A stretch of 64,000 bases of DNA, from positions 448,001 to 512,000 of the forward strand of contig CAXXLV010000001.1 in NCBI GenBank assembly GCA_963664305.2, written 5' to 3'. The notes below the pieces were generated by a model. It saw nothing but the letters and a program-made list of their open reading frames with translations. It had not been told where the DNA came from and searched no databases. The translations under genes were made by a program, and so were the position numbers. This DNA comes from an uncultured Aliarcobacter sp. GTDB lineage: Bacteria; Campylobacterota; Campylobacteria; Campylobacterales; Arcobacteraceae. Positions 20,096-63,676 of the stretch are shown piece after piece. Position 1 is the stretch's first letter. Each line of letters opens with the position of its first letter.

Positions 20096-20143
20096 AAATA
20101 AAATCTTTACTAGAAAATGGCTTTATCAGGGGGAAAATACAAT

Positions 20144-20767
20144 ATGAATATAAAAAATTTATTAATTATGTCTATTTATATTTCCTTATTTATGACAGGA
20201 TGTTCTTATAAAACTAGTGAAGAATCTGTTGATATGTCTACATATTATAAAAATAAAAATTCTATTCACTCAAATGCTTCTTTACAAGAAAGCGATTATC
20301 AAAAATATAAAAACTTTAAACAGCAACAACAATCAAAAAACAATTCAAAAAGTAGTATATTTGATGAATTTACAAATACAAACTATATAACTAAAAAAAC
20401 AGCTCTTAATAATGAACTATTTGATTTTTACAGTAAATGGGAAGGTGTAAGATATAAACTTGGTGGAGAATCTAAAAAAGGTATAGATTGTTCAGCATTT
20501 ATTCAAAAGGCATTTAAAGAAAAATTTGATTTAGAAATGCCAAGAACTACACTTATGCAAGCTAATGTTGGGAAATCAATTAAAAAAGATGAACTTGAGA
20601 TTGGTGATTTAGTTTTTTTCAAAACTGGTAAAACCAAGCATGTTGGTATATATATAGATAACGGTAAATTCATGCATGCATCAACTAAGACAGGTGTAAC
20701 AATCTCTGATTTAGATAATGATTATTTCAATAAAAATTATTGGAAAGCCCAAAGAATAATTGATTGA
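20144..20767 (+). CDS. NlpC/P60 (C40) peptidoglycan endopeptidase lipoprotein 1
   Basis: Lipobox MTGC; YKLGG..GIDCSAF, HVGIY and HAS catalytic motifs; ATG at 20144 follows SD AGGGGG. Confidence 0.92.
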   Translation: MNIKNLLIMSIYISLFMTGCSYKTSEESVDMSTYYKNKNSIHSNASLQESDYQKYKNFKQQQQSKNNSKSSIFDEFTNTNYITKKTALNNELFDFYSKWEGVRYKLGGESKKGIDCSAFIQKAFKEKFDLEMPRTTLMQANVGKSIKKDELEIGDLVFFKTGKTKHVGIYIDNGKFMHASTKTGVTISDLDNDYFNKNYWKAQRIID

Positions 20768-20789
20768 TTATTAACTATAGGAGAAAATA

Positions 20790-21440
20790 ATGATAAAAAA
20801 GTATTTAACTGTAATACCTGCTGTCTTTATATTTACTGCTTGTAGTAATAACATCCAAAATTTAGAAAATTCTTCTAACCTAAATAACAATCAAACTAAA
20901 ACTACTTTATCTTACGATGATTATGCAAAATTATATGAAACTAAAAATAAAACACAAAAAACAAGTGTTTTAACAAATTATGAAACTATATTCAATCCTA
21001 AAGAATATAAAAGTTCTAATAATAAAAACTATGAATTAGCTAATAATAAAGAAACTATAGTTTCTGAAATCCCAAAGAGAAAACAAGCTTTTAATGACTT
21101 TTATAATGAATGGAAGAATGTTAGATATAAACTTGGTGGAGAATCTAAAAAGGGTATAGATTGCTCTGCATTTACTCAAAGAATCTACAAAGACAAATTT
21201 GGGATAGAATTACCAAGAACAACTCTTACTCAAGTTAATATGGGTGTTGAAGTAAAAAAAGCAGAATTAATTCCTGGTGATTTAGTATTTTTCAAAACAA
21301 GTAAAACTGATAAGCATGTAGGAGTTTATGTAGGAAATGGAAATTTCATGCATGCATCAATTAAAGGTATCCAATTTACAAGTCTTGAAAAACCTTTTTA
21401 TAAAAAGAATTATTGGACTTCTAGAAGAATTATAGATTAA
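20790..21440 (+). CDS. NlpC/P60 (C40) peptidoglycan endopeptidase lipoprotein 2
   Basis: Lipobox FTAC; GIDCSAF, HVGVY and HAS motifs. Confidence 0.92.
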   Translation: MIKKYLTVIPAVFIFTACSNNIQNLENSSNLNNNQTKTTLSYDDYAKLYETKNKTQKTSVLTNYETIFNPKEYKSSNNKNYELANNKETIVSEIPKRKQAFNDFYNEWKNVRYKLGGESKKGIDCSAFTQRIYKDKFGIELPRTTLTQVNMGVEVKKAELIPGDLVFFKTSKTDKHVGVYVGNGNFMHASIKGIQFTSLEKPFYKKNYWTSRRIID

Positions 21441-24794: not shown

Positions 24795-25346
24795 TTGATT
24801 AGACTTGGTTCAAATTCACCTACTCGTGCATTAATTTTAAAAAATTATGGAATAGATTTCATCCAAAATGGTGGAGATTTTGATGAAGATTCTATAATAA
24901 CTACTAATCCCAAATCATTTTGCTATGAAGCAACTCTTGGAAAATTTCAAGAACTTTATAAAAAATATGGAATAGAAGATATGCCTTTACTTGTTGCTGA
25001 TTCTGTTGTAACTTGCGAAGGAAAATTATTGAGAAAAGCAAAAGATTATGATGATGCAAAATCTATGCTTGAACTTCAAAGTGGTAATAAAACATCAGTG
25101 ATAACTTGTATGATTTATAAATCAAAAGATAAAGAATTAATAGATATTTCAATCACAACTTATAACTTTGATAAATTTGATGAAAAACATATGAAAGAGT
25201 ATTTAGATTCAGGTGAATGTTTTGGTAAAGCAGGTGCAATTATGGTAGAAGGTTTTTGTAAACCATATATAAAAAACGTAGTTGGATATGAAAGTACAGC
25301 TATGGGATTATGTGTTGATAAATTAATTAATTATCTTCCACATTAA
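24795..25346 (+). CDS. maf: Maf-family nucleotide pyrophosphatase
   Basis: LGSNSPTR, ADSVV and GKAGA motifs; TTG start. Confidence 0.92.
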   Translation: MIRLGSNSPTRALILKNYGIDFIQNGGDFDEDSIITTNPKSFCYEATLGKFQELYKKYGIEDMPLLVADSVVTCEGKLLRKAKDYDDAKSMLELQSGNKTSVITCMIYKSKDKELIDISITTYNFDKFDEKHMKEYLDSGECFGKAGAIMVEGFCKPYIKNVVGYESTAMGLCVDKLINYLPH

Positions 25347-25518: not shown

Positions 25519-25707
25519 ATGCTGAATTTTTTAAAAAGAAGATTAAAAAACCAAAAAGGTGCAATGGATAAAATCCTTGTTACGTTATTATTAGTTATCG
25601 TAGGTGTTGGTGCCGTTATTGGATTAGCTCAATGGGCAACTGACCAAAAAGACTTAGTGCAAAATTCTGCAAATACTTCTATTAGCAACGTTGTAAACGG
25701 TCAATAA
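25519..25707 (+). CDS. flp: Flp-like major pilin (type IVc), non-canonical
   Basis: Basic leader MLNFLKRRLKNQKG, hydrophobic helix, 62 aa, first gene of the tad cluster; lacks the E+5/Y+6 Flp motif. Confidence 0.75.
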   Translation: MLNFLKRRLKNQKGAMDKILVTLLLVIVGVGAVIGLAQWATDQKDLVQNSANTSISNVVNGQ

Positions 25708-25738
25708 ATAAGGAAGTAGCTTTTGCTACTTCTTTATT
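25707..25738 (+). terminator. Hairpin or partial terminator between flp and the prepilin peptidase gene
   Basis: 14-bp stem AATAAGGAAGTAGC-tttt-GCTACTTCTTTATT with one G-U pair. Confidence 0.75.
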
Positions 25739-25751
25739 AATTTAGATTATT

Positions 25752-26189
25752 ATGTTTACAATAAGTTTTTATATATTTTCTATTATTCTCTCTTATACTG
25801 ACTATAAAAAATTTTTAGTTCCAAATAATTTATTACTTAGTATGTCAATAATGTTGATAATATTTGGTTTCTTTGAATCAAAAATATATATAAGCTCTAT
25901 TGTTTTATCGTTTTTAGTTTTAATTTTTTTCATAATTTTAATTTTATTAAAACCAACTATGATTCTTGGTGGTGGTGATATTAAATATATGATTATAATC
26001 GCATTTTATTTAGGAATAGAACCATTTGCCCTATTTCTTGTTATAACAGGAATTTTGCAAACTTTAACACTTTTATATATTCAAAATATAAAAAAAAGAA
26101 GAATTGCACCAATGGTTCCTATAATGTTTTTATCCGTAATAATTGTTGAAATTTTAATTTCACTTAATATTTATCCATTTAAGATTTAA
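25752..26189 (+). CDS. tadV: A24 prepilin peptidase, TadV/CpaA type (no methylase domain)
   Basis: Two catalytic Asp motifs, YTDYKKFLVPN and GGGDIK; 145 aa, hydrophobic. Confidence 0.85.
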   Translation: MFTISFYIFSIILSYTDYKKFLVPNNLLLSMSIMLIIFGFFESKIYISSIVLSFLVLIFFIILILLKPTMILGGGDIKYMIIIAFYLGIEPFALFLVITGILQTLTLLYIQNIKKRRIAPMVPIMFLSVIIVEILISLNIYPFKI

Positions 26190-26198
26190 GGTTCTATC

Positions 26199-27242
26199 AT
26201 GAAAAAAGCACTAATTGATCAAGTAATGTTAGGTCTATTTTTATTTGTAGTATTAATTATTATTGGTGCAACTGTTAGTGATAATATGCAAGCAAGAGAT
26301 AAATACTATAATCTTAAAAAAATAACAGATAATGCCGTTTTAACCCTAGCAAAATATTATGTAAATGTTGAAGAGAATACTCTAAATGCACAAGATGTTT
26401 ATTATCAAATGTTAACAAAAACAAAACTTGGAAATGAAGTAAAAGATACTATTATCTATAATTGGGATTTTATTAGTGAACCAAATACAGTAACAGCTGA
26501 AATACCAAGCTACATTGAAAACACATTTTGGTTTAGATTATTTGGACTTAACGCATTTAATTTAAAAGCTTCTTCAAAAGCTACAATTACTATTACCGAT
26601 TTACCAACTGCAACTTCAAGTTATTCAAGTGGAATAGCACCATTTGCAGTAAATTATAGAGATTTTGTAATTGGTGATAGTTTAGATATCACATATGCTT
26701 TGACTGCTGATTGGCAATATAGTGACAAAGAGACTTTCTACCCAATATTGACCAATTGTGATTGTGACTGTGATTTTATTTTAAGTAATAAATTTGACTT
26801 CTCATCTTTAGGATTTGATGTGGATGCTTGTAATTCTTCTAGTTCAGCATGCACAAGTCATGGAGAGAGTGAATTTACACAATATTCTAATGCTTTAGAT
26901 GATATTTACAATTCTAACCAAAGTATTGATTTTGATAATGGTGTAACTTCATCTCCAATTTGTTTAATTGGAACATATTTAGGTAATACAACATCCACAT
27001 GGGGAACACAAATCAACGGATTATCTAGTGGAATTTATGATATCATTGGTAACACGGGTCAAAATTTACCTTTGGAAATGGATATAATTACTTTAGGTGA
27101 TAATGGAAAAGCAAATGGAATAGTAAGACTGAAGATTACAAGTTATGATTTTGTAACAGTTAGTAATCCAGATAACAGATATTTAACTCTGAATACAACT
27201 ATTGTTCCAGCAAAAACAAGAGAAATACATTTAGTAGATTAG
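26199..27242 (+). CDS. TadG-like pseudopilin or tip adhesin
   Basis: MKKA leader, hydrophobic helix, D..Q.R...L..ITDNAVLTLA Tad-domain pattern, Cys-rich acidic C-terminal domain. Confidence 0.7.
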   Translation: MKKALIDQVMLGLFLFVVLIIIGATVSDNMQARDKYYNLKKITDNAVLTLAKYYVNVEENTLNAQDVYYQMLTKTKLGNEVKDTIIYNWDFISEPNTVTAEIPSYIENTFWFRLFGLNAFNLKASSKATITITDLPTATSSYSSGIAPFAVNYRDFVIGDSLDITYALTADWQYSDKETFYPILTNCDCDCDFILSNKFDFSSLGFDVDACNSSSSACTSHGESEFTQYSNALDDIYNSNQSIDFDNGVTSSPICLIGTYLGNTTSTWGTQINGLSSGIYDIIGNTGQNLPLEMDIITLGDNGKANGIVRLKITSYDFVTVSNPDNRYLTLNTTIVPAKTREIHLVD

Positions 27243-27250
27243 GATAAATT

Positions 27251-28843
27251 ATGAATATTCAAGAGTATCAAGAAAAAATAGAACATTCTCAAGAAAATAA
27301 ATTCTTTCAAGAAAGTATTCATGAAATGATTGAACTTTTCTGTGATTTGAGTAATCAACCTTATGTTGCATATTATAAATATGAATATGAATATAATGAC
27401 TATTTCCACCAAATTACTGTTAATAGTAATGGTGAAGAATTAAATGATGAAATAAATCATTTTGATAATTATAAATTACTACTAAAAGATAGTAAGAGAG
27501 TTTATGGTTACTTGTTAATAAAAAACAAAATTAAATACTCTTCTTTATTAAGAAAATTGCTTAAAAAAATTATAAAAAAATTAGCAAGAGAACATGAAAT
27601 AAATAAAAAATTATCACAAGGAGAAATTCCTTTTAATATCTATCTAATTCATGATGATTTAGAAACATTTGCAAATAATTTAAAAACTGGTTTGGAAAGT
27701 TTATTTAATGCAAATATTATTTATGATTCATCAATTGAAAAACATTATGAACATATTCAAACTAAAGAATCAAAAAATATCATAATTTTTTTAATAAATG
27801 ACCTAGAGTTTATAGAAAAATTTGCTGATAAACTAAAATATTTAAATGAATTAATCATAGTTATTGGACCAAATGACCATCATATTTCTATGAGTTGTGG
27901 AAAATTAGGTATCGAAGACTATATTTCAATAAATGATTTTAAAGCTGAAAATTTAAAATCAATTATTGTAAATAAAAGAAAAATCTTACTTAATAAAAAT
28001 AAATTTGGTAATAGAATTATTGCTTTAGCTGGAATTGCAGGAGGAATTGGAACAACATCAATTGCAATGAATATGTCTGATTTAATTGCTAAAAATGTTC
28101 CTGATAAAAATATTTTATATATAGATTTATCAACTACAAAAGCAATAAGTAATCTATTTTTATCAGGTGACCCTCTACCAAATAAGACAATAATTGATTT
28201 AATAAATAGTAGTGAATTTAATTTAGACAATAATCTTGAACACGGTCTTGTAAAAGTTAGAGAAAATTTTTATAGTATTACTGGAATTCAAAAACATATT
28301 GATAAAGAGTTTATTGAAAAAGATATTTTTATTCAAAAACTATTAGAGTATATTTCATCTTGCAGTGATTATTTTAACTTTGTAATTATTGATTTAGGAA
28401 TAGCAGATGCATCAAATCTAAAATCTACAATTTATGATATTGTAAATGAATTATGGATTATAACTTCAATGAATTTACCACATACTTCTCAATTAAAAAC
28501 TTTTTATTCATTGATGAAAAGAGCTGGATTAAGGGATAAAATTTCTTTTTTAGCAAATAGATTTGACTCTGAAAATACAATAAGTGTAACAGATGTTATA
28601 TCAATTTTAAATATGAGTAATGATGAAAAAGATCAATTCGAAAGATTTAAAATACCAAATGATTATAAAAGTTTAGGAAGATGTTGGAATCTTTGTGAAC
28701 TAGCATCTCAAAAAGATGTTAATTCTTTATTCATAAAAAAATTAAACTCTATTTTAGAAGAAAAAAATTTTTATAAATCAAAAATTAAAGTAACAACACA
28801 AAGTGGTTTTTTTTCAAATCTTTTTAAGAGGGATAAAAGATGA
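27251..28843 (+). CDS. TadZ/CpaE-like pilus localisation protein (pseudo-receiver plus MinD-like ATPase, long N-terminal extension)
   Basis: RIIALAGIAGGIGTTSIAMN, YIDL and FNFVIIDLG motifs; directly upstream of tadA. Confidence 0.75.
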   Translation: MNIQEYQEKIEHSQENKFFQESIHEMIELFCDLSNQPYVAYYKYEYEYNDYFHQITVNSNGEELNDEINHFDNYKLLLKDSKRVYGYLLIKNKIKYSSLLRKLLKKIIKKLAREHEINKKLSQGEIPFNIYLIHDDLETFANNLKTGLESLFNANIIYDSSIEKHYEHIQTKESKNIIIFLINDLEFIEKFADKLKYLNELIIVIGPNDHHISMSCGKLGIEDYISINDFKAENLKSIIVNKRKILLNKNKFGNRIIALAGIAGGIGTTSIAMNMSDLIAKNVPDKNILYIDLSTTKAISNLFLSGDPLPNKTIIDLINSSEFNLDNNLEHGLVKVRENFYSITGIQKHIDKEFIEKDIFIQKLLEYISSCSDYFNFVIIDLGIADASNLKSTIYDIVNELWIITSMNLPHTSQLKTFYSLMKRAGLRDKISFLANRFDSENTISVTDVISILNMSNDEKDQFERFKIPNDYKSLGRCWNLCELASQKDVNSLFIKKLNSILEEKNFYKSKIKVTTQSGFFSNLFKRDKR

Positions 28844-30441
28844 GAAGTTTAAGAAATCTTATTGAAGAACAAGAAGAGCAAGAATATACTAAAAAGAAGG
28901 ATTTAGTAGAATTTGAAGAATTAGATAATATTGAAGAAACAAAAAATAAAATTGAAAAATATAAACAATATCAATCAAATTCTGAATTAAAATTTCCCGA
29001 AATTTATATAAATAAAGAACTATACGATTTAGCATTAAAGATAAATGATAGTTTTTTATTAAAACTTAAATCAGACCAAAAAATTACAAAAGAAAATTTA
29101 GAAGAAGTATTACCAGAATATATTTTATCTTTTAAAGAATCAAGAGCTTTAAAAAGAGAAATATTAGATGATATTAAAACTATGATTATAAACAACATTA
29201 TTGGTTTTGGTCATATTTCAACTATTTTTACAATTGCAAGAGATGGCTTAAATGATGTTATTGTAAATACAAAAGACTATATTGATATTATTTATAAAGG
29301 TAAAACTTATCAAACTCCATTTACATTTAGAAGTGAAGAAGAGTTAAGAAAAATTATCGATAAAATGCTTGCTGAAAATAATAGAAAAATCGATGAAGCT
29401 CATCCAATTATGTCAAGTAAATTAAAAGATGGTTCAAGAATTGAAGTTCAAATTCCTCCAATTGCAGCAAATGAAGGAAGTTGTATTACTATTAGAAAAT
29501 TTAACGATATTCCTTTACTAATGGAAATGCTTATTGATGGTGGGCAAATGGATTATAAAATGGCCTATTTCCTAGTAAAAGCTGCAAAAGGAAAATGTAA
29601 TATCATTGTTTCAGGAGGAACATCAAGTGGTAAGACAACTTTCTTAAATGCAATGACAAGATTCGTTGACGAAAATGAACAACTTATGGTTATTGAAGAT
29701 ACAAGAGAGATGCAACCACAAATGCCTTGTCACTCTATTAGACAATATGAAGCAAGAATGGCAAATGAAGAAGGAAAAGGTGCAATTACACTTGATTTCT
29801 TGTTACGTTCGGCTCTACGGTCAAGTCCAAGAAGGATTATTGTTGGGGAGTGTAGAGGACCTGAAATTGTTGTTATGTTAAATGCGATGAATACTGGACA
29901 TCCTGGTTCAATGACAACTGTTCATGCTGATAATACAAAAGAAGCTCTAGTTAGGATTGAGAATATGTATCTTGAAGCCAGACCTAGTGCAAATATCAAT
30001 TTTATTAGAACTCAAATTGCAAGTGCTGTTGATTTAATTATTCAGCTTGTTAGGTTTCCTGATGGTAGTAGAAAACTAATCACTGTTTCAGAGATTGAAA
30101 GAAGAATTGAAGATAACGGTGTAATCTCACTAAATCATATCTTTGAATTTAAAAGAGATACAAGTGATTTGAAAAAAACAAAAGGTGAATTTAAAGTTTT
30201 ATCTACTCCAACAAGAACAGCCGACCAAATGAATATGTTTGGAGTTGATATAGATAAAAGAGTATTTGATCCAAATTTTGAAATGCCAAAATCAATGTTA
30301 ATTGAAGCACTTGAAGATGATTTACCTTCTGTTATGTGTGGATGGAAAGATGAATTTATTGAACACTTTATCAAATCAGACCCTCAGCTTTTCCATAAAT
30401 GGCCACATTTCCAAAAAATAAGAAAGGCAAATAATGGATAA
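28840..30441 (+). CDS. tadA: TadA/CpaF pilus assembly ATPase
   Basis: Walker A GGTSSGKTT, IEDTRE, ALRSSPRRIIVGECRG and NTGHPGSMTTVHA motifs. Confidence 0.95.
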   Translation: MRSLRNLIEEQEEQEYTKKKDLVEFEELDNIEETKNKIEKYKQYQSNSELKFPEIYINKELYDLALKINDSFLLKLKSDQKITKENLEEVLPEYILSFKESRALKREILDDIKTMIINNIIGFGHISTIFTIARDGLNDVIVNTKDYIDIIYKGKTYQTPFTFRSEEELRKIIDKMLAENNRKIDEAHPIMSSKLKDGSRIEVQIPPIAANEGSCITIRKFNDIPLLMEMLIDGGQMDYKMAYFLVKAAKGKCNIIVSGGTSSGKTTFLNAMTRFVDENEQLMVIEDTREMQPQMPCHSIRQYEARMANEEGKGAITLDFLLRSALRSSPRRIIVGECRGPEIVVMLNAMNTGHPGSMTTVHADNTKEALVRIENMYLEARPSANINFIRTQIASAVDLIIQLVRFPDGSRKLITVSEIERRIEDNGVISLNHIFEFKRDTSDLKKTKGEFKVLSTPTRTADQMNMFGVDIDKRVFDPNFEMPKSMLIEALEDDLPSVMCGWKDEFIEHFIKSDPQLFHKWPHFQKIRKANNG

Positions 30442-31360
30442 TTTATTTTTATTTTTTATTTTTACTATTCCTGTACTATTTGGAGTATTTGCTTTAACAA
30501 CATACTCTTTTTATTCAAAAGTAAGAAATAAAAAATATTTAATAAATTTATTATCAAGTACAAATAGTAAAATTATTGATAAAAATAAAATCGATAATTT
30601 CTCAACAAAAGATGACAATTGGCTTATCAAAAAACTAAGATTTGCAGGTTTTAATTCAAAGGGTGCAGAAGTAATTTTTATTTTAATAAGCCTTGGATTT
30701 GGATTTTTATCTGCTGCATTTGTATATTTTGTTGCAAATTCTAAAATCATATTTATCTTTTGTTTTTTAATCTTTTCTTTTTTCCCTTATTTAGTTTTAG
30801 TAAAAATCATAAAATCAAGAGAAGAAGAGTTCAATTTTAATTTAAAAGAATTAATTGACAAAGTTACAAGTATGATGAAAAGTGGTGTTGGTTTTGAACA
30901 AGCTTTAAAAAAATCAATTCTAACTTGTAAATCAAAACTTACAAAAGATATTTTTTCAATTTATATTAATGAAAAATCAATTATTGGTGAAGATAAATGT
31001 TTTGAAAAAATGTTTGATATTATTGAATCAAAAGAGTTAAGGATTTTTTATCTAACTATTTCAATAGGAAGAAAATCTGGAGGTAAATTTTCTAATACAT
31101 TAGAAAAATTAAGAAAAACATTACATGACCAAGGTGAAATTAAACAAGAAATCACTTCATCAACAAAAGAGATAAAAATTGGAACTTACTTTATTATAGG
31201 TATTACAGTTTTTATTTATATTATGTTGAATCAAGCACTAAATAATGTACTTAATCAACATTTTTTTGGTAGTGATACAGGGAAACTTCAAATGTTTTTT
31301 ATTGTTGTTTGGGTTTCATTTGGTATATTTGTAAATAGCTTATTAACAAAGATTAAATAA
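30434..31360 (+). CDS. tadB: TadB inner-membrane platform protein (T2SSF fold)
   Basis: TM pattern, MKSGVGFEQAL and KSGGKFSNTL motifs; follows tadA. Confidence 0.85.
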   Translation: MDNLFLFFIFTIPVLFGVFALTTYSFYSKVRNKKYLINLLSSTNSKIIDKNKIDNFSTKDDNWLIKKLRFAGFNSKGAEVIFILISLGFGFLSAAFVYFVANSKIIFIFCFLIFSFFPYLVLVKIIKSREEEFNFNLKELIDKVTSMMKSGVGFEQALKKSILTCKSKLTKDIFSIYINEKSIIGEDKCFEKMFDIIESKELRIFYLTISIGRKSGGKFSNTLEKLRKTLHDQGEIKQEITSSTKEIKIGTYFIIGITVFIYIMLNQALNNVLNQHFFGSDTGKLQMFFIVVWVSFGIFVNSLLTKIK

Positions 31361-32199
31361 TGGAAAAATCACTTTTACTACTAATATTAGCACCTGTTGT
31401 ATTAGCCTTTATTTTCCTAATTACACTTGTTTTCCTTGAAAAAAGAAAACAACAAAAAAGTATTATTCTTCTTTCAAAAATGGATAATAAAGCAATTATT
31501 GACCAACAAAGAACAAAGAAAAAAGACAGCACTGGTCTTACTATGAAATTAATTCAATCTGGAATTACTTATAAAGAGTATACGGAAGCTAGATTAGTTT
31601 TTGCAATAATTGGTTTAATACTTATGTGTACATTACCTTTCTTTTTTTCAATCACAGTTGGAATAATAAGTGTGGCTGTTGGGATTTTATGTATTGTTTT
31701 TGGTGGAGATATGTATTTAAGTATCTCGAAATCTGAAAGAATTGAAAAAATCAACAATGACTTAGGTGTTTTTTTGGATTTAGTAAATGTTATTTTAGAA
31801 GCTGGAGGAAGTTTAAAAAATGCATTTTTTGAAGTTTCAAAAAGAGGTGTTGGGATAATTGACCAAGAATTATTAAAAGAAATTGCAATTTTAGAATATG
31901 AAATGACAAATTACTCTTCAAAAGTTGCATATGAAAATCTAAAAAATAGAATTGATAGTAGAGAAGTTGATAAGATAGTTGATTTCTTGATTTTAAGTGA
32001 AGAAACAGGAATTGGTGTAAAAAATATTTTTACAATGCAGTCTGATGAAATGAGAAAAGAAAAATTTTATAAAATAAAAGGAAAGGTTAACACTCTTAAC
32101 ATGTATCTGATGTTAATAATCTTTCTTTTTGTTTTACCAGCATTTGGAGCATTTATAATTTTCCCAATGATGGCAGGCAAAATAACAATGGGATTATAA
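31360..32199 (+). CDS. tadC: TadC inner-membrane platform protein
   Basis: FLDLVNVILEAGGSLKNA, EETG and C-terminal FVLPA motifs. Confidence 0.85.
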   Translation: MEKSLLLLILAPVVLAFIFLITLVFLEKRKQQKSIILLSKMDNKAIIDQQRTKKKDSTGLTMKLIQSGITYKEYTEARLVFAIIGLILMCTLPFFFSITVGIISVAVGILCIVFGGDMYLSISKSERIEKINNDLGVFLDLVNVILEAGGSLKNAFFEVSKRGVGIIDQELLKEIAILEYEMTNYSSKVAYENLKNRIDSREVDKIVDFLILSEETGIGVKNIFTMQSDEMRKEKFYKIKGKVNTLNMYLMLIIFLFVLPAFGAFIIFPMMAGKITMGL

Positions 32200-32217
32200 T
32201 TTAAATAAGGAAAAAGT

Positions 32218-33417
32218 ATGCAGGTAAATAAACAATTAATAGTTATTATAATATTGGCTTCACTGCTATTCTCAGCGCTAGGTGCAGCGTTTTATTTTTA
32301 TAACAAAAATAAAAAATCAATGGATGAGCAAAATCAATTAGTAACTATCTATATTGCAAAAGATGATATCCCCAAAGATACATTACTAACCACTGAACAT
32401 TTAGCACAAACGAATATTGCTAAACAATTTATTTTAAATAAACCATTGGTAAAAGAAGAGATTATAGGTAAATATACAAACGAAAGAATTTACAAACATG
32501 AAATATTTCTAAAACAAAAATTAGACACAGAAATAAAAAAAGAGCAAAAAAATTTACTTGAGTTTGAAAAAAGTGCATACAACATGAAATTTGAATTATT
32601 TAGAAATCCAAATTATGCTCTTCAACAAGGTGAATATATCAATGTTATTTCAGTATTCCCAATAGGAGAAGGAGATAACAAAGGAAGATTCTCTGATTTT
32701 GATGTTACTTATGTTGCACCAAATATTAAAATTTTAGGTTTTATTAGAGATGGAAGATATGAAGCAAAATCAATAACAAAACATAAAATTAAAAAAGTAA
32801 TCAACAAAAATGTTGAAGAGGTAGAAGAAGAAATTAAAGCTGATGAAGTGATTTTAGATATAGATTTAGATGTTTTATTGAAACTAATTAAAAACTACAA
32901 TCTAGGTACTCAATTATGGATGACAAGAACTAAGTTTTCAAATGATTACATTCAAGAACTTCAAGATGAGAAAAAAGCATTAGAAGAGCAAAAATCAGAA
33001 AATAACTATAAATCAAATATAATAGAAATTGATTTAAGAGAACCAGTAGTTAGAAAATTCCAATATGTTATGTATCAACCAACAAAAGCTGTTAGTCAAA
33101 AAAGTGCATTGATTGAATATTCTAATAACAAAGAAGAATCTACTACTAAAAATGTTGATATTGTTGCTAATCCAGCAACTTTATGTAAAACAATAAAAGA
33201 TAATTTCATTGTTGGTGTTCCGACTGGTTTTTACATTAGATCAGAAGCAACAAGAAGTTCAAAAGAGAAAACTTTATTAAGTAAAAATACAATTATTCCT
33301 TTTATTGATAAACAAGCAGATTGGTATAGAACTTGTGATGAAAAATATATACATGAAAGTGTTGTAAATGAGGTAAACTCATCATTTGTAAAAGAAAAAT
33401 TGGGGAAATATGAATAA
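32218..33417 (+). CDS. RcpC/CpaB-like protein (TM, SAF domain, RcpC domain) with an SH3b-like C-terminal tail
   Basis: IYIAKDDIPKDTLLT SAF pattern, LQQGEYINVI, C-terminal IRSEAT..S...WY..YI pattern. Confidence 0.75.
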   Translation: MQVNKQLIVIIILASLLFSALGAAFYFYNKNKKSMDEQNQLVTIYIAKDDIPKDTLLTTEHLAQTNIAKQFILNKPLVKEEIIGKYTNERIYKHEIFLKQKLDTEIKKEQKNLLEFEKSAYNMKFELFRNPNYALQQGEYINVISVFPIGEGDNKGRFSDFDVTYVAPNIKILGFIRDGRYEAKSITKHKIKKVINKNVEEVEEEIKADEVILDIDLDVLLKLIKNYNLGTQLWMTRTKFSNDYIQELQDEKKALEEQKSENNYKSNIIEIDLREPVVRKFQYVMYQPTKAVSQKSALIEYSNNKEESTTKNVDIVANPATLCKTIKDNFIVGVPTGFYIRSEATRSSKEKTLLSKNTIIPFIDKQADWYRTCDEKYIHESVVNEVNSSFVKEKLGKYE

Positions 33418-33835
33418 TAAAACTATGAAAAAAGCATTTATAGACCAAATAATACTTTGGATAGTATTATTTACTATTTTTGTATCCTTCTTATTTTTTA
33501 TTATTGATTACTCTAATGCTATTAAGGTAAAGGATAATACAGATGCAATTGCAGATTATATTGCAAGAATGATTGCATTGGATAAAACAGACTATGAAAT
33601 TATAACTGGTGCAAATAAAATAAAAGAGAGTTACTTTGCCGATATACAAGAAGGTGAAATTGTTTGTAATATTGATGCTTCAATATCAAATTATGAAGTT
33701 ATTATGAACGTAAAAACAACTTTAACTAATGGTTTTTTAAATGCAGGAGATAATAATGTGCATTCAAAAACAGTTGTTTTTAATGAGAGTAGTGAATTTC
33801 AAAAAGAGTGTACTTTAACACTATCATTTAACTAG
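33410..33835 (+). CDS. TadE/TadF-like pseudopilin
   Basis: MKKA-FIDQ leader, hydrophobic helix, A...AR..A pattern, two Cys. Confidence 0.65.
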   Translation: MNNKTMKKAFIDQIILWIVLFTIFVSFLFFIIDYSNAIKVKDNTDAIADYIARMIALDKTDYEIITGANKIKESYFADIQEGEIVCNIDASISNYEVIMNVKTTLTNGFLNAGDNNVHSKTVVFNESSEFQKECTLTLSFN

Positions 33836-33844
33836 GGGAAAACA

Positions 33845-35332
33845 ATGAAAATACTAAAAATAATGGCTTATTTATTCTTATTTTTTACATTAGCAAATTC
33901 AAATGAATTGATTCAAAAGAATCTAAATGAAAAAACTTTTACAATAAATAAAGGTTCTTTCAAAATATTAGAGTTTGATAAAATGATAAGAAATGTTAAA
34001 GTAAATGATAAAGAAATTGTTGAAGTTGATTTTGTTGATGATGATATAAAACCATTACAAACACTTAAAATATTTGCAAAAACTATTGGTCATGGAAATG
34101 TATTAGTGACATTTATTGATTCTTCTTCTATGCACATTGATATTAGTATTGTTGAAAATTTACTTGATATTATAAATGTAGCAAAACATATTGCACCAAA
34201 ATTAGATATACAACAAACAAATGGAAAGATTATCTTAAAAGGTTTTATTGACGACCCAAAAACAAAAGTTAAAATATTAGATTTATTTAAAAAAGGTGGA
34301 ATTGATATTGATAAAGATTTAGTTGATTTAATCAGCTTAACAAATCCAGAAAAGATGATTAGATTAAAACTTTATGCTGTTGAAATCAATAATTCAAAAG
34401 GTTTAGATTTAAAAAACAATTGGGTTGTTTCATCAAAAAACTATACAGAAGTTGTTAACACAGATGGTTTATATCATAATGAAAGTCTTAATAATTTTGC
34501 AAGTACAGATGCTCAAAGAAGTAAGCTTGTAAGTGATACAATTGACAAAACAATGGCAAATGCAGTAACTCTAACAGGTGGATTAACTGGTGCAGCTAAT
34601 TATTTAGGGAAATACTTTAATGCTGCATTAACACTTAACTATTTATCAAGTAAAGGTGTTGCATCTATTCTTGATGAAACTACATTGCTAACTTTAGAAA
34701 ATCAAGATGCAACATTTCATGCAGGTGGTACAATTTATTTAAAAATTGCAACTACAACAAATCAAGGTGTACCAACAACAGAAGTTAGAAATATAAATTA
34801 TGGATTACAACTAGATATAAAAGCAGAAAATATTGTTAATAACAACTTTGTAAATCTAAATATCAATACAAAATCTACTCAAATCGATTGGGCAAATACA
34901 GTTGATGGAATACCAAGTTTTACAGAAAAATCAATAAAAACTAACGTTGTTGTAGGTAATCAATCAACAATTATTTTAGGTGGTTTAATTAGCAGCAGTA
35001 GTTCACAAGATGTAGATAAAATTCCACTATTAGGAGATATTCCTATTTTAGGTATGTTATTTACTAGTAAAGCTTTTAAAGAAGGGAAAAGTGAACTTGT
35101 ATTTTTTATAACTCCTGAAATTGTTGACCCAAGAAACAATGACCAATTCGAGAAATTAGATAAAAAAACAAGTTTTACAAAAGAATTAGAAGTAAATAAA
35201 CAAGAATTAGAAGAACAACAAAAACAAGTTATTGAAGAAAATGAAGATGTTGTAGAAGAAAAAGTAGCAGAAACAAATCTTGATTCAAAAACTGAACATG
35301 AAAAAAGAGTAAAAGAACTTTTAGGATACTAA
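33845..35332 (+). CDS. rcpA: RcpA/CpaC pilus secretin
   Basis: Signal peptide, N-domain with FAKTIGHGNV, BON-like segment, secretin signature GGLI...KIPLLGDIPILGMLF...SELVFFITP. Confidence 0.92.
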   Translation: MKILKIMAYLFLFFTLANSNELIQKNLNEKTFTINKGSFKILEFDKMIRNVKVNDKEIVEVDFVDDDIKPLQTLKIFAKTIGHGNVLVTFIDSSSMHIDISIVENLLDIINVAKHIAPKLDIQQTNGKIILKGFIDDPKTKVKILDLFKKGGIDIDKDLVDLISLTNPEKMIRLKLYAVEINNSKGLDLKNNWVVSSKNYTEVVNTDGLYHNESLNNFASTDAQRSKLVSDTIDKTMANAVTLTGGLTGAANYLGKYFNAALTLNYLSSKGVASILDETTLLTLENQDATFHAGGTIYLKIATTTNQGVPTTEVRNINYGLQLDIKAENIVNNNFVNLNINTKSTQIDWANTVDGIPSFTEKSIKTNVVVGNQSTIILGGLISSSSSQDVDKIPLLGDIPILGMLFTSKAFKEGKSELVFFITPEIVDPRNNDQFEKLDKKTSFTKELEVNKQELEEQQKQVIEENEDVVEEKVAETNLDSKTEHEKRVKELLGY

Positions 35333-35357: not shown

Positions 35358-36380
35358 TTAATTAAATGTTGGTTTTTCAGTTTCAATTGTAGATTCAGGA
35401 AGTTGTGGGTAGATAATTTGAGGTTTGTCACCTTTTAATGATTTAAAAAATGTTACAATTTTTGCTGAATCTTCATCTGAAATATTTATTCCCAATTGAA
35501 CTGAACCCATTTCTTTAACAGCTTCATTTAAAGACCAAATTTGACCATTATGGAAATATGGTGCTGTTTCAGTGATATTTCTTAATGTTGGCGTTTTTAC
35601 CATACCATTTGCATCTCCTTTAAAATCACCTACATTTGTAAATTTATATTGTGAAGCCACTTGGAATGGCTGCATTGTTCCACCTAGTGCAATTCCACTA
35701 TGACAAGCCGTACAACCTTTATCAATAAATGTATTTAAGCCCTCTTTTTCTTCTTTTGTTAAAGCTTTATCATCACCGCTTAAAAATTTATCAAATCTTG
35801 ATGGTGTAACTAAAGTTTTTTCAAAAGTTGCGATTGTTGCTGTAATTTTCTCAAAATCTACTTTTACATCTTTTCCATATGCAGTTTTAAATTCATTAAT
35901 ATATTCAGGTATTGAATTAATTCTTTGTTCAACTAATGCAGGTGGTGCAGCCATCTCTGGACCTGCTTGAACTGGACCTTGTGCTTGATCAGCTAAATGA
36001 GGACTTCTTCCATCCCAAAATTGAGCTTTGAAAAATACTGAATTATATACTGTTGGAGAATTAAGATGATGAGGATTTGCTGTCCAACCATGTCCAATTG
36101 CAGCGGGAACTCCATCTGCACCACCTAAAGCTAAATTATGGCAAGTATTACAAGAAATTAATCCACTTCTTGAAAGTCGTGGATCAAAATAAAGTTTTTT
36201 ACCTAATTCAATTTTTTCTTTAGTAATTGGATCATTTTTATCATCGATCATCTTCATTAATTTTGTTTTATCAGCTGGTATTGCTTCTAAACCACTATTT
36301 TTTGCTTTTTCAACTAATGTTGTTGCTAGTAATGAACTTGCACCTAATAAACAAATTGCCAATGATTTTACAATTTTCAT
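35358..36380 (-). CDS. ccpA: Di-heme cytochrome c peroxidase
   Basis: Signal peptide, CNTCH and CTACH, QFWDGR, KTPTLRNI..TAPYFHNG. Confidence 0.93.
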   Translation of the reverse strand: MKIVKSLAICLLGASSLLATTLVEKAKNSGLEAIPADKTKLMKMIDDKNDPITKEKIELGKKLYFDPRLSRSGLISCNTCHNLALGGADGVPAAIGHGWTANPHHLNSPTVYNSVFFKAQFWDGRSPHLADQAQGPVQAGPEMAAPPALVEQRINSIPEYINEFKTAYGKDVKVDFEKITATIATFEKTLVTPSRFDKFLSGDDKALTKEEKEGLNTFIDKGCTACHSGIALGGTMQPFQVASQYKFTNVGDFKGDANGMVKTPTLRNITETAPYFHNGQIWSLNEAVKEMGSVQLGINISDEDSAKIVTFFKSLKGDKPQIIYPQLPESTIETEKPTFN

Positions 36381-36577: not shown

Positions 36578-37048
36578 TTATTTAAGAAGATTTTTTATGA
36601 TTGAGTTTACACCAATATGCAGATTATATGTTGAAATAGGAAAATCTAAAATATCTTCATCAGTAACATTAATTCTATTTGATAAAAGATAAGTTTCCAA
36701 TTTTTCTATATCTATTTCTTTATAGTCTTTATCTTTATGTTCAGTTCTTTGAAGTTTATTTTTTTCATTACTTTGTTTGATTATAAAATACAAAATTCTT
36801 AAACAAACTAAGTCACTCCATCTAAAAAATAGATTACTATCTAGTTCATTTAGTATCTTTCCTTCAGGATTAAATAGTAAATCTTGTTCTTTTAATGGAA
36901 TTAATATAGACAGTATTGCATCAGTATAAGGAATAATTTTTTCTTTCCAGAAATCAGCCTCATCACTTTTTTCTAATCTATCTTTTAATATTTCAAGTAT
37001 CTCTTCACTAGAAGAATTTTGCAAAAGTTGAGTTAAATAATCAAGCAT
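36578..37048 (-). CDS. Hypothetical acidic helical protein translationally coupled to dxs
   Basis: 156-aa ORF with TAATG overlap on the dxs stop. Confidence 0.7.
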   Translation of the reverse strand: MLDYLTQLLQNSSSEEILEILKDRLEKSDEADFWKEKIIPYTDAILSILIPLKEQDLLFNPEGKILNELDSNLFFRWSDLVCLRILYFIIKQSNEKNKLQRTEHKDKDYKEIDIEKLETYLLSNRINVTDEDILDFPISTYNLHIGVNSIIKNLLK

Positions 37049-63348: not shown

Positions 63349-63424
63349 TGGAGGAGGTAGTCGGACTCGAACCAACGCATGTCGGATTTGCAATCCGAGG
63401 CATTACCAGCTTTGCTATACCTCC
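63349..63424 (-). tRNA. tRNA-Cys (GCA)
   Basis: Cloverleaf GGAGGTA.../TACCTCC-T-CCA, anticodon arm TCGGA-TTGCAAA-TCCGA, T-loop GTTCGA. Confidence 0.95.
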
Positions 63425-63488
63425 AACAAAATATTGGATAAGTTAAATCAAATAATGATAAAAAGTTAAATGATTTAAGTTTAAAAAA

Positions 63489-63577
63489 TGGCAGAGAGCA
63501 AGGGATTCGAACCCTCGGAGGCGTGAACCTCGCCGGTTTTCAAAACCGGTACAATCGACCAACTCTGTCAACTCTCT
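63489..63577 (-). tRNA. tRNA-Ser (TGA)
   Basis: Anticodon arm CCGGT-TTTGAAA-ACCGG, long variable arm, GTTCGAATC, GCCA end. Confidence 0.95.
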
Positions 63578-63589
63578 ACTCATTAATAA

Positions 63590-63676
63590 TGGTGCGAATG
63601 ATCGGAATCGAACCGATACTCCCAAACGGGAATTGGATTTTAAGTCCAACGCGTCTACCTGTTCCGCCACACTCGC
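63590..63676 (-). tRNA. tRNA-Leu (TAA)
   Basis: Anticodon arm TTGGA-CTTAAAA-TCCAA, long variable arm, GTTCGATTC, ACCA end. Confidence 0.95.

Follow-up and report, generated by a model that had tools for sequence, protein, structure and literature searches.

A 64,000-nucleotide stretch of an uncultured Aliarcobacter sp. (contig CAXXLV010000001.1, positions 448,001 to 512,000; assembly GCA_963664305.2), referred to here as the window, carries a Tad (type IVc) pilus operon at positions 25519-35332. The operon comprises ten open reading frames (ORFs) on the plus strand (Table 1). All frames are intact, and adjacent genes overlap or are separated by at most 45 bp. Judged by its machinery, this operon is a member of the Tad family, and its pilin lacks the Flp motif.

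Table 1. Genes and RNA element of the Tad operon; positions refer to the window.
Feature	Position	Strand	Description
major pilin gene	25519..25707	+	62 aa product
RNA hairpin	25707..25738	+	14-bp, directly 3' of pilin stop; z -5.6
tadV	25752..26189	+	prepilin peptidase, A24, without methylase domain
tadG-like	26199..27242	+	minor pilin with variable inserted domain; predicted to be a likely tip adhesin
tadZ/cpaE	27251..28843	+	extra N-terminal domain, receiver, ParA/MinD-like domain
tadA/cpaF	28840..30441	+	motor ATPase; catalytic motifs intact, lineage-specific C-terminal tail
tadB	30434..31360	+	platform protein, one T2SSF domain
tadC	31360..32199	+	platform protein, one T2SSF domain
rcpC/cpaB-like	32218..33417	+	transmembrane segment, SAF domain, C-terminal bacterial SH3
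tadE-like	33410..33835	+	minor pilin with an acid at +3 and a pair of invariant cysteines
rcpA/cpaC	33845..35332	+	secretin with Tad-type N-terminal domain, charged C-terminal tail

The prediction that this machinery is Tad, and not a type II secretion system (T2SS) or a type IVa pilus (T4aP), is supported by profile comparison. The assignment is based on a CpaF-type TadA, separate TadB and TadC proteins, TadZ, a methylase-less TadV and a short helical pilin. TadA matches CpaF with 231 bits, compared with 112 bits for archaeal FlaI, 80-89 for VirB11 and at most 38 for PilT, PilB and GspE. Its orthologues preserve the Walker A motif in 69 of 70 cases and the Asp-box, Walker B and His-box in 70/70 each. 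The C-terminal tail of TadA is conserved in the lineage, and its best match among 148 other ATPases reaches only E 0.048. Pfam finds a single T2SSF domain in TadB and in TadC. TadV (145 aa) consists of the A24 domain alone (Peptidase_A24, E 2.5e-12) with both Asp motifs; the GGD motif is present in 56/56 orthologues and the first Asp motif in 48/56.

The structural model of TadZ (predicted local distance difference test score 80.7) has its best Foldseek match in 3FKQ (E 1.7e-10), a protein with receiver and ParA-like domains which we take to be TadZ from E. rectale. VIA delineates a receiver at residues 126-250 and a ParA fold at residues 250-509 of the model; the P-loop lacks both lysines. 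The architecture of the E. rectale protein has been described (PMC13170226). About 120 residues at the N-terminus form an additional domain ahead of the receiver. A GAF domain is recognisable here in 1 of 36 orthologues, and the sequence gives no demonstrated link between that GAF and the N-terminal domain of the Arcobacteraceae proteins (E 0.02). The secretin RcpA contains secretin and T2SS-T3SS_pil_N domains, and Pfam reports no GspD N0 domain in this protein; its PDB matches are a mixture of RcpA and GspD. The RcpC protein of the window is weak by itself (CpaB model, E 0.0011). Among 36 orthologues, 31 contain SAF, 15 contain SH3_3 and 2 match the RcpC Pfam family.

The minor pilins are more variable. 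The TadG-like protein has no Pfam match, including none to the von Willebrand factor A domain, and scores 0.95 to TadG (PF13400) clusters in the Atlas, where the likeness is to TadG from Bacillota and Actinomycetota. In its model, the N-terminal part resembles a pilin and a further domain is inserted. Foldseek returned nothing for this model at E <= 0.001, and VIA matched pilin folds at Z 5-7, which is within the range of chance. Across loci the protein ranges from about 330 to 850 aa (L119:12235-14655 is among the forms of about 800 aa), and the one long orthologue that was scanned contains Ig and cadherin domains. In family f15 the corresponding slot (L098:11764-13488) is occupied by an unrelated-looking protein of 550-590 aa with no Pfam match. 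The TadE-like orthologues (n = 36) match PF13400 in six cases and TadE in three.

No gene for TadD, RcpB or CpaD was found in the locus. A tblastn search of the genome with five reference proteins was also empty, although a remote tetratricopeptide repeat lipoprotein could escape it, and the CpaD Pfam model has no match in the genome. A search for the RcpB family was uninformative, as it gave no match in control genomes either. In Caulobacter, CpaO/TadD is reported to be dispensable, and CpaD has been proposed as the anchor to the cell wall (PMC13170226). The dispensability of CpaO makes the absence of TadD plausible.

The most unusual feature of the operon is found in its pilins. Predicted cleavage of the major pilin after Gly14 leaves a mature protein of 48 aa that begins with AMDKIL, has Asp at +3 and lacks Glu5 and Tyr6. 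We collected 180 distinct homologues, of which 173 were put in register and seven with truncated or atypical leaders were excluded. In the aligned proteins the leader is basic and ends in Gly, a hydrophobic stretch is present, the mature form is predicted at 45-55 aa, and positions +1 to +22 are strongly conserved. Not one of them has Glu or Tyr at any position from +1 to +10. Asp+3 is present in 165/173 (Arcobacteraceae), and the remaining eight, which belong to other families, carry Gly at that position and no acidic residue. The idea that the acid has merely shifted from +5 to +3 is therefore true for Arcobacteraceae and fails for the eight acid-free pilins, and the trait of the whole lineage is the loss of Glu5 and Tyr6. 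As a control, we inspected 80 unrelated Tad loci with ATPases of 39-51% identity, drawn from a scan of metagenomes that used the weak sister P0157. From 18 of these loci came 24 candidate pilins, and 22 of them contain Glu5-Tyr6. The filter used for this control did not require Glu; by eye, the other two are a Flp that is one residue out of register and a non-pilin. In TadE-like orthologues, position +3 is Asp or Glu in 32/32 sequences in register (4 of 36 were left out), TadG-like orthologues have Asp+3 in 19/28, and neither set has Glu+5. Since the genome contains no match to PF04964 (Flp), no canonical Flp is available as a substitute. The archaeal pilin family PF07790 gave no match, and a search for longer pilin homologues gave a single, uninformative one at E 4.7. 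The first-pass annotation was right to place a pilin gene at the head of the operon, but its name for this gene, flp, passed over the non-canonical motif.

Several observations suggest that this small gene at the head of the operon encodes the major pilin. It is found in 58 of the 60 TadA-positive Arcobacteraceae genomes and in 5 of the 124 TadA-negative ones, and it is often duplicated. A hairpin follows it in 41/47 loci (statistics from single-base shuffles), compared with 0-10% after eight internal genes and 30/58 after the last gene. The structure of this hairpin is conserved and its sequence is not. No sigma-70 promoter was found on the plus strand upstream of the gene in the window. Away from the operon, a divergent pair of pilin-like genes surrounds a gene for a 194-aa protein (L148:5096-6259 and L152:4504-5655); the pair also occurs in a complete genome without tadA (G135).

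Counting rows with E <= 1e-125 as orthologues, TadA is encoded in 60/184 Arcobacteraceae genomes, 13 of 22 genera, and 8/44 genomes of the genus of the window. In an order-wide sample it is found in four further families (f2, 1/1; f8, 3/11; f15, 5/38; f19, 5/32), and the named carriers outside Arcobacteraceae include Sulfurospirillum metagenome-assembled genomes (MAGs; L090, L091). The proposal of a lineage-specific Tad thus holds at the level of the order, but the operon is common and not specific to a strain. The first-pass annotation had also allowed for a locus that is already characterised and ordinary in this family. It is indeed common there, but a search of open full texts, which takes in few subscription journals, yielded no account of a Tad major pilin lacking Glu5 or of this lineage. 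The searchable supplements of PMC6668835 contain no Campylobacterota names; its figures, a large text file and a large table lie outside that search and may list them. The closest named loci are from Aliarcobacter MAGs with 86% TadA identity. One MAG labelled Aliarcobacter butzleri (L066) encodes a TadA with 73% identity, and this difference makes its label doubtful.

Gene order is conserved as well. The core order Z-A-B-C-rcpC-rcpA is kept in 59/59 loci that span tadZ to rcpA (76 distinct loci in total), and the exact order of the window in 38/52 loci that span tadV to rcpA; dxs lies downstream in 21 of these 52. Distances between TadA proteins track those between Dxs proteins (22 loci and the window; Mantel 0.805, 0/2000 permutations), and the two trees have seven supported splits in common. 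Degenerate pilin genes, in one case together with tadV, sit between maf and dxs in two complete tadA-negative genomes and are deletion scars of the operon (L147:4984-5649, L149:5588-5764). Because TadA tracks Dxs and remnants occupy the same site, the operon is, on this comparative evidence, old in Arcobacteraceae, mostly inherited vertically and often lost. Orphan pilin genes also occur beside maf in genomes where the operon sits elsewhere (L150:4879-5070, L151:5003-5197).

In the window, the operon lies between maf (+, 24795-25346) and a convergent gene for a di-haem cytochrome c peroxidase (-, 35358-36380), and most surrounding ORFs are on the minus strand. Its G+C content is 25.6%, compared with 26.5% for the window and 26.5-27.3% for the two contigs. 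Pfam recognised no integrase or transposase among 16 flanking proteins scanned between 16384 and 43226. The ORF map and these data agree with the first-pass annotation, which had described ten co-oriented, tightly spaced genes between maf and the peroxidase gene, running against the prevailing strand, with host-like composition and no integrase. A recent horizontal island was considered and ruled out by the host-like G+C content, the conserved maf/dxs site, and co-divergence with Dxs.

How does this operon compare with known systems? With the Tad/Flp pili of Caulobacter crescentus (Cpa), Aggregatibacter, Pseudomonas and Vibrio it has in common a single locus encoding a CpaF-type ATPase, TadB and TadC, TadZ, a methylase-less TadV, RcpC, RcpA, a short helical major pilin, TadE and TadG. 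Unlike these systems, it has no Flp motif in any pilin, one TadE-like gene instead of TadE and TadF, the secretin gene in last position, and no detected TadD, RcpB or CpaD. The SH3 domain on RcpC, the additional TadZ domain and the TadA tail are further differences, and TadA identity to these systems is about 35-44%. The trimmed Flp of Bdellovibrio keeps EY (PMC5430801), and KilP keeps G/XXXXE (PMC12075869). T2SS and T4aP differ by a GspE/PilB ATPase and a two-domain platform protein, which are encoded elsewhere in the genome. Within Campylobacterales, a TAD pilus has been mentioned, with adhesion as its proposed role, in an Osedax-associated Sulfurospirillum epibiont (PMC10470745). The resemblance to our operon is by description; the accessible part of that source mentions the cluster without analysis of the pilin or its distribution. 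Canonical Tad systems also occur in the order. A separate canonical-type ATPase is present in 8/276 sampled genomes of the two largest other families (f26, f11), and all three examined loci (L103 in G389, L153 in G704, L154 in G677) encode TadD, TadEFG and a Flp with Glu5-Tyr6 (start VTAIEY) in the order flp-tadV-rcpC-rcpA-tadZABCD. Their presence in a few genomes of these families is a further correction to the first-pass annotation. TadA of L103, the one placed in the tree, groups with Vibrio CpaF (support 97-99), and these canonical systems are a separate acquisition.

Is the missing motif ancestral? The operon might represent the deepest bacterial Tad branch, or have exchanged Flp for an archaeal-type pilin, such that the absence of Glu5 and Tyr6 reflects archaeal ancestry and not secondary loss. 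If so, this pilus would be a link between Flp pili and the type IV pili of archaea, and Glu5 could no longer be called invariant among major pilins of bacterial pili. A model of Tad and its archaeal origin are treated in PMC6668835. The pilin profile finds the archaeal adhesion filament Iho670 as its two top PDB matches (3J1R, E 6e-4; 5KYH, 0.004) and no Flp among 14 matches with E up to 10, and two haloarchaeal pilins (L136) reach 6.5 bits compared with at most 1.7 bits for four Flps. However, these scores are low and driven by the hydrophobic helix, Geopilin is third (0.013), and in the Atlas the archaeal Class_IIIsignal cluster (0.86) is closely followed by a Flp1-like cluster (0.85). Archaeal type IV pilins likewise lack Glu5 and have a similar hydrophobic N-terminal helix, but differ by a globular C-terminal domain and by their FlaI-type ATPases. 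We consider the resemblance to be real but weak, and ancestry does not follow from it.

Trees of TadA are divided on its position within Tad. The Campylobacterales proteins form a fully supported clade on a very long stem (57-87% identity inside, about 44% or less outside). FastTree (169 rows) joins this clade to archaeal ATPases with support of 89. This join disappears in quick IQ-TREE trees under a mixture model, which place the clade in a basal polytomy of bacterial Tad; a quick tree assigns it to the bacterial Tad side of the archaeal/bacterial split with a Shimodaira-Hasegawa-like approximate likelihood ratio of 96. These trees contain 58 and 27 rows, most without taxonomy, and leave out Epd-type ATPases and one Streptomyces row. 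In the approximately unbiased (AU) test, neither a position outside all other Tad (p-AU 0.80) nor one beside CpaF of Vibrio and Azospirillum (p-AU 0.54) is rejected. The similarity of TadG to bacterial homologues also speaks against an archaeal or basal origin, which we consider unlikely. In the Caulobacter Tad filament, Glu5 faces the pilus surface, the N-terminus has polar contacts to other subunits through Thr2 alone, and the subunits pack in an archaeal-like manner (PMC10710030). Since Glu5 is surface-facing and the packing is archaeal-like, loss of Glu5 is structurally plausible.

We think it probable that the ten genes specify a complete Tad machine, which belongs to an old lineage within Campylobacterales, and that this machine likely assembles a thin, all-helical adhesion pilus from pilins without Glu5 and Tyr6. 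Gene content, intact catalytic motifs, conserved loss of the pilin motif, distribution and mostly vertical descent are established by the comparisons. By analogy to known Tad systems, TadV would cut the basic leader after Gly or Ala, and the hairpin, a predicted partial terminator or mRNA stabiliser, would make pilin mRNA more abundant than mRNA of the remaining genes. TadG and TadE would prime the tip, where TadG would display its variable adhesive domain. TadA, together with TadB and TadC, would extend and probably retract the filament through RcpC and the RcpA secretin, while TadZ would position or gate the motor. More speculatively, the subunits may be held by hydrophobic contacts as in archaeal pilins, with Asp+3 (together with Lys+4) as a refinement in Arcobacteraceae and no requirement of the lineage. 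The SH3 domain of RcpC may stand in for CpaD as cell-wall anchor, and the N-terminal domain of TadZ may be a decayed GAF sensor.

Several points weigh against this interpretation. The filament and its phenotype are deduced from the genes. The cleavage site is a prediction, and a cut between Ala and Met would shift the numbering of the pilin residues. The pilin has no Pfam match above cut-off, its homologues were drawn with a profile of the same family and are mostly from Arcobacteraceae, and RcpC has no sequence match in the PDB. Two of 14 supported TadA splits conflict with the Dxs tree. Finally, neither a pilotin nor CpaD was found in the genome, and TadD is reported to be essential for the secretin of Aggregatibacter (PMC6668835), as is CpaD for the machine of Caulobacter (PMC13170226).

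The failure to find a pilotin would also fit a short pseudopilus or endopilus that serves secretion or DNA uptake instead of surface adhesion, and Tad-dependent DNA uptake has been reported in other systems (PMC4322843, PMC8513845). We see little chance for this alternative. The pilin-specific hairpin and the frequent duplication of the pilin gene suggest a large excess of pilin, TadG can bear Ig and cadherin domains, and no DNA-uptake gene was recognised in the locus. Furthermore, the genome separately encodes GspE/PilB-type ATPases, a two-domain platform protein, a GspD-type secretin and a second prepilin peptidase. Among the putative functions that the first-pass annotation lists (adhesion, biofilm formation, surface sensing, DNA uptake), adhesion has the best indirect support. 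That the operon is decaying or non-functional and its motif lost by drift is hardly credible, even though 124/184 family genomes lack the operon and some keep degenerate remnants. None of the ten frames is broken, family orthologues of TadA are 69-87% identical and retain their motifs, the first 22 positions of the pilin are strongly conserved, and the hairpin is kept in structure while its sequence varies.

A conserved and widespread Tad system without Glu5 and Tyr6 provides a natural test for the role of Glu5 in membrane extraction and filament packing. A review describes Glu5 in pilins generally as present 'often, but not always' (PMC10191384). It also shows why annotation by motif overlooks such pilins, most named homologues of which are called 'hypothetical'. 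The operon also provides a candidate adhesin for environmental Campylobacterales.

Outside of the operon, the genes named above for the GspE/PilB-type ATPase, two-domain platform, GspD-type secretin and additional prepilin peptidase are scattered (L157:6533-9132, L155:6490-8196, G000:C1:553012-553362) and belong to a separate T2SS or competence-like machine. Another cluster (L156:787-12445, G000:C1 ~866800-878400) encodes a T2SSE-type ATPase, two large proteins that have RCC1-like repeats, and several proteins that no Pfam model matches. The window itself encodes a tandem pair of 216-aa NlpC/P60 proteins (20117-21440), a cluster of tRNA-Cys, tRNA-Ser and tRNA-Leu genes distant from the operon (63349-63676), and a 156-aa protein with no Pfam or NCBIfam match (36578-37048), the gene for which adjoins dxs in relatives too.

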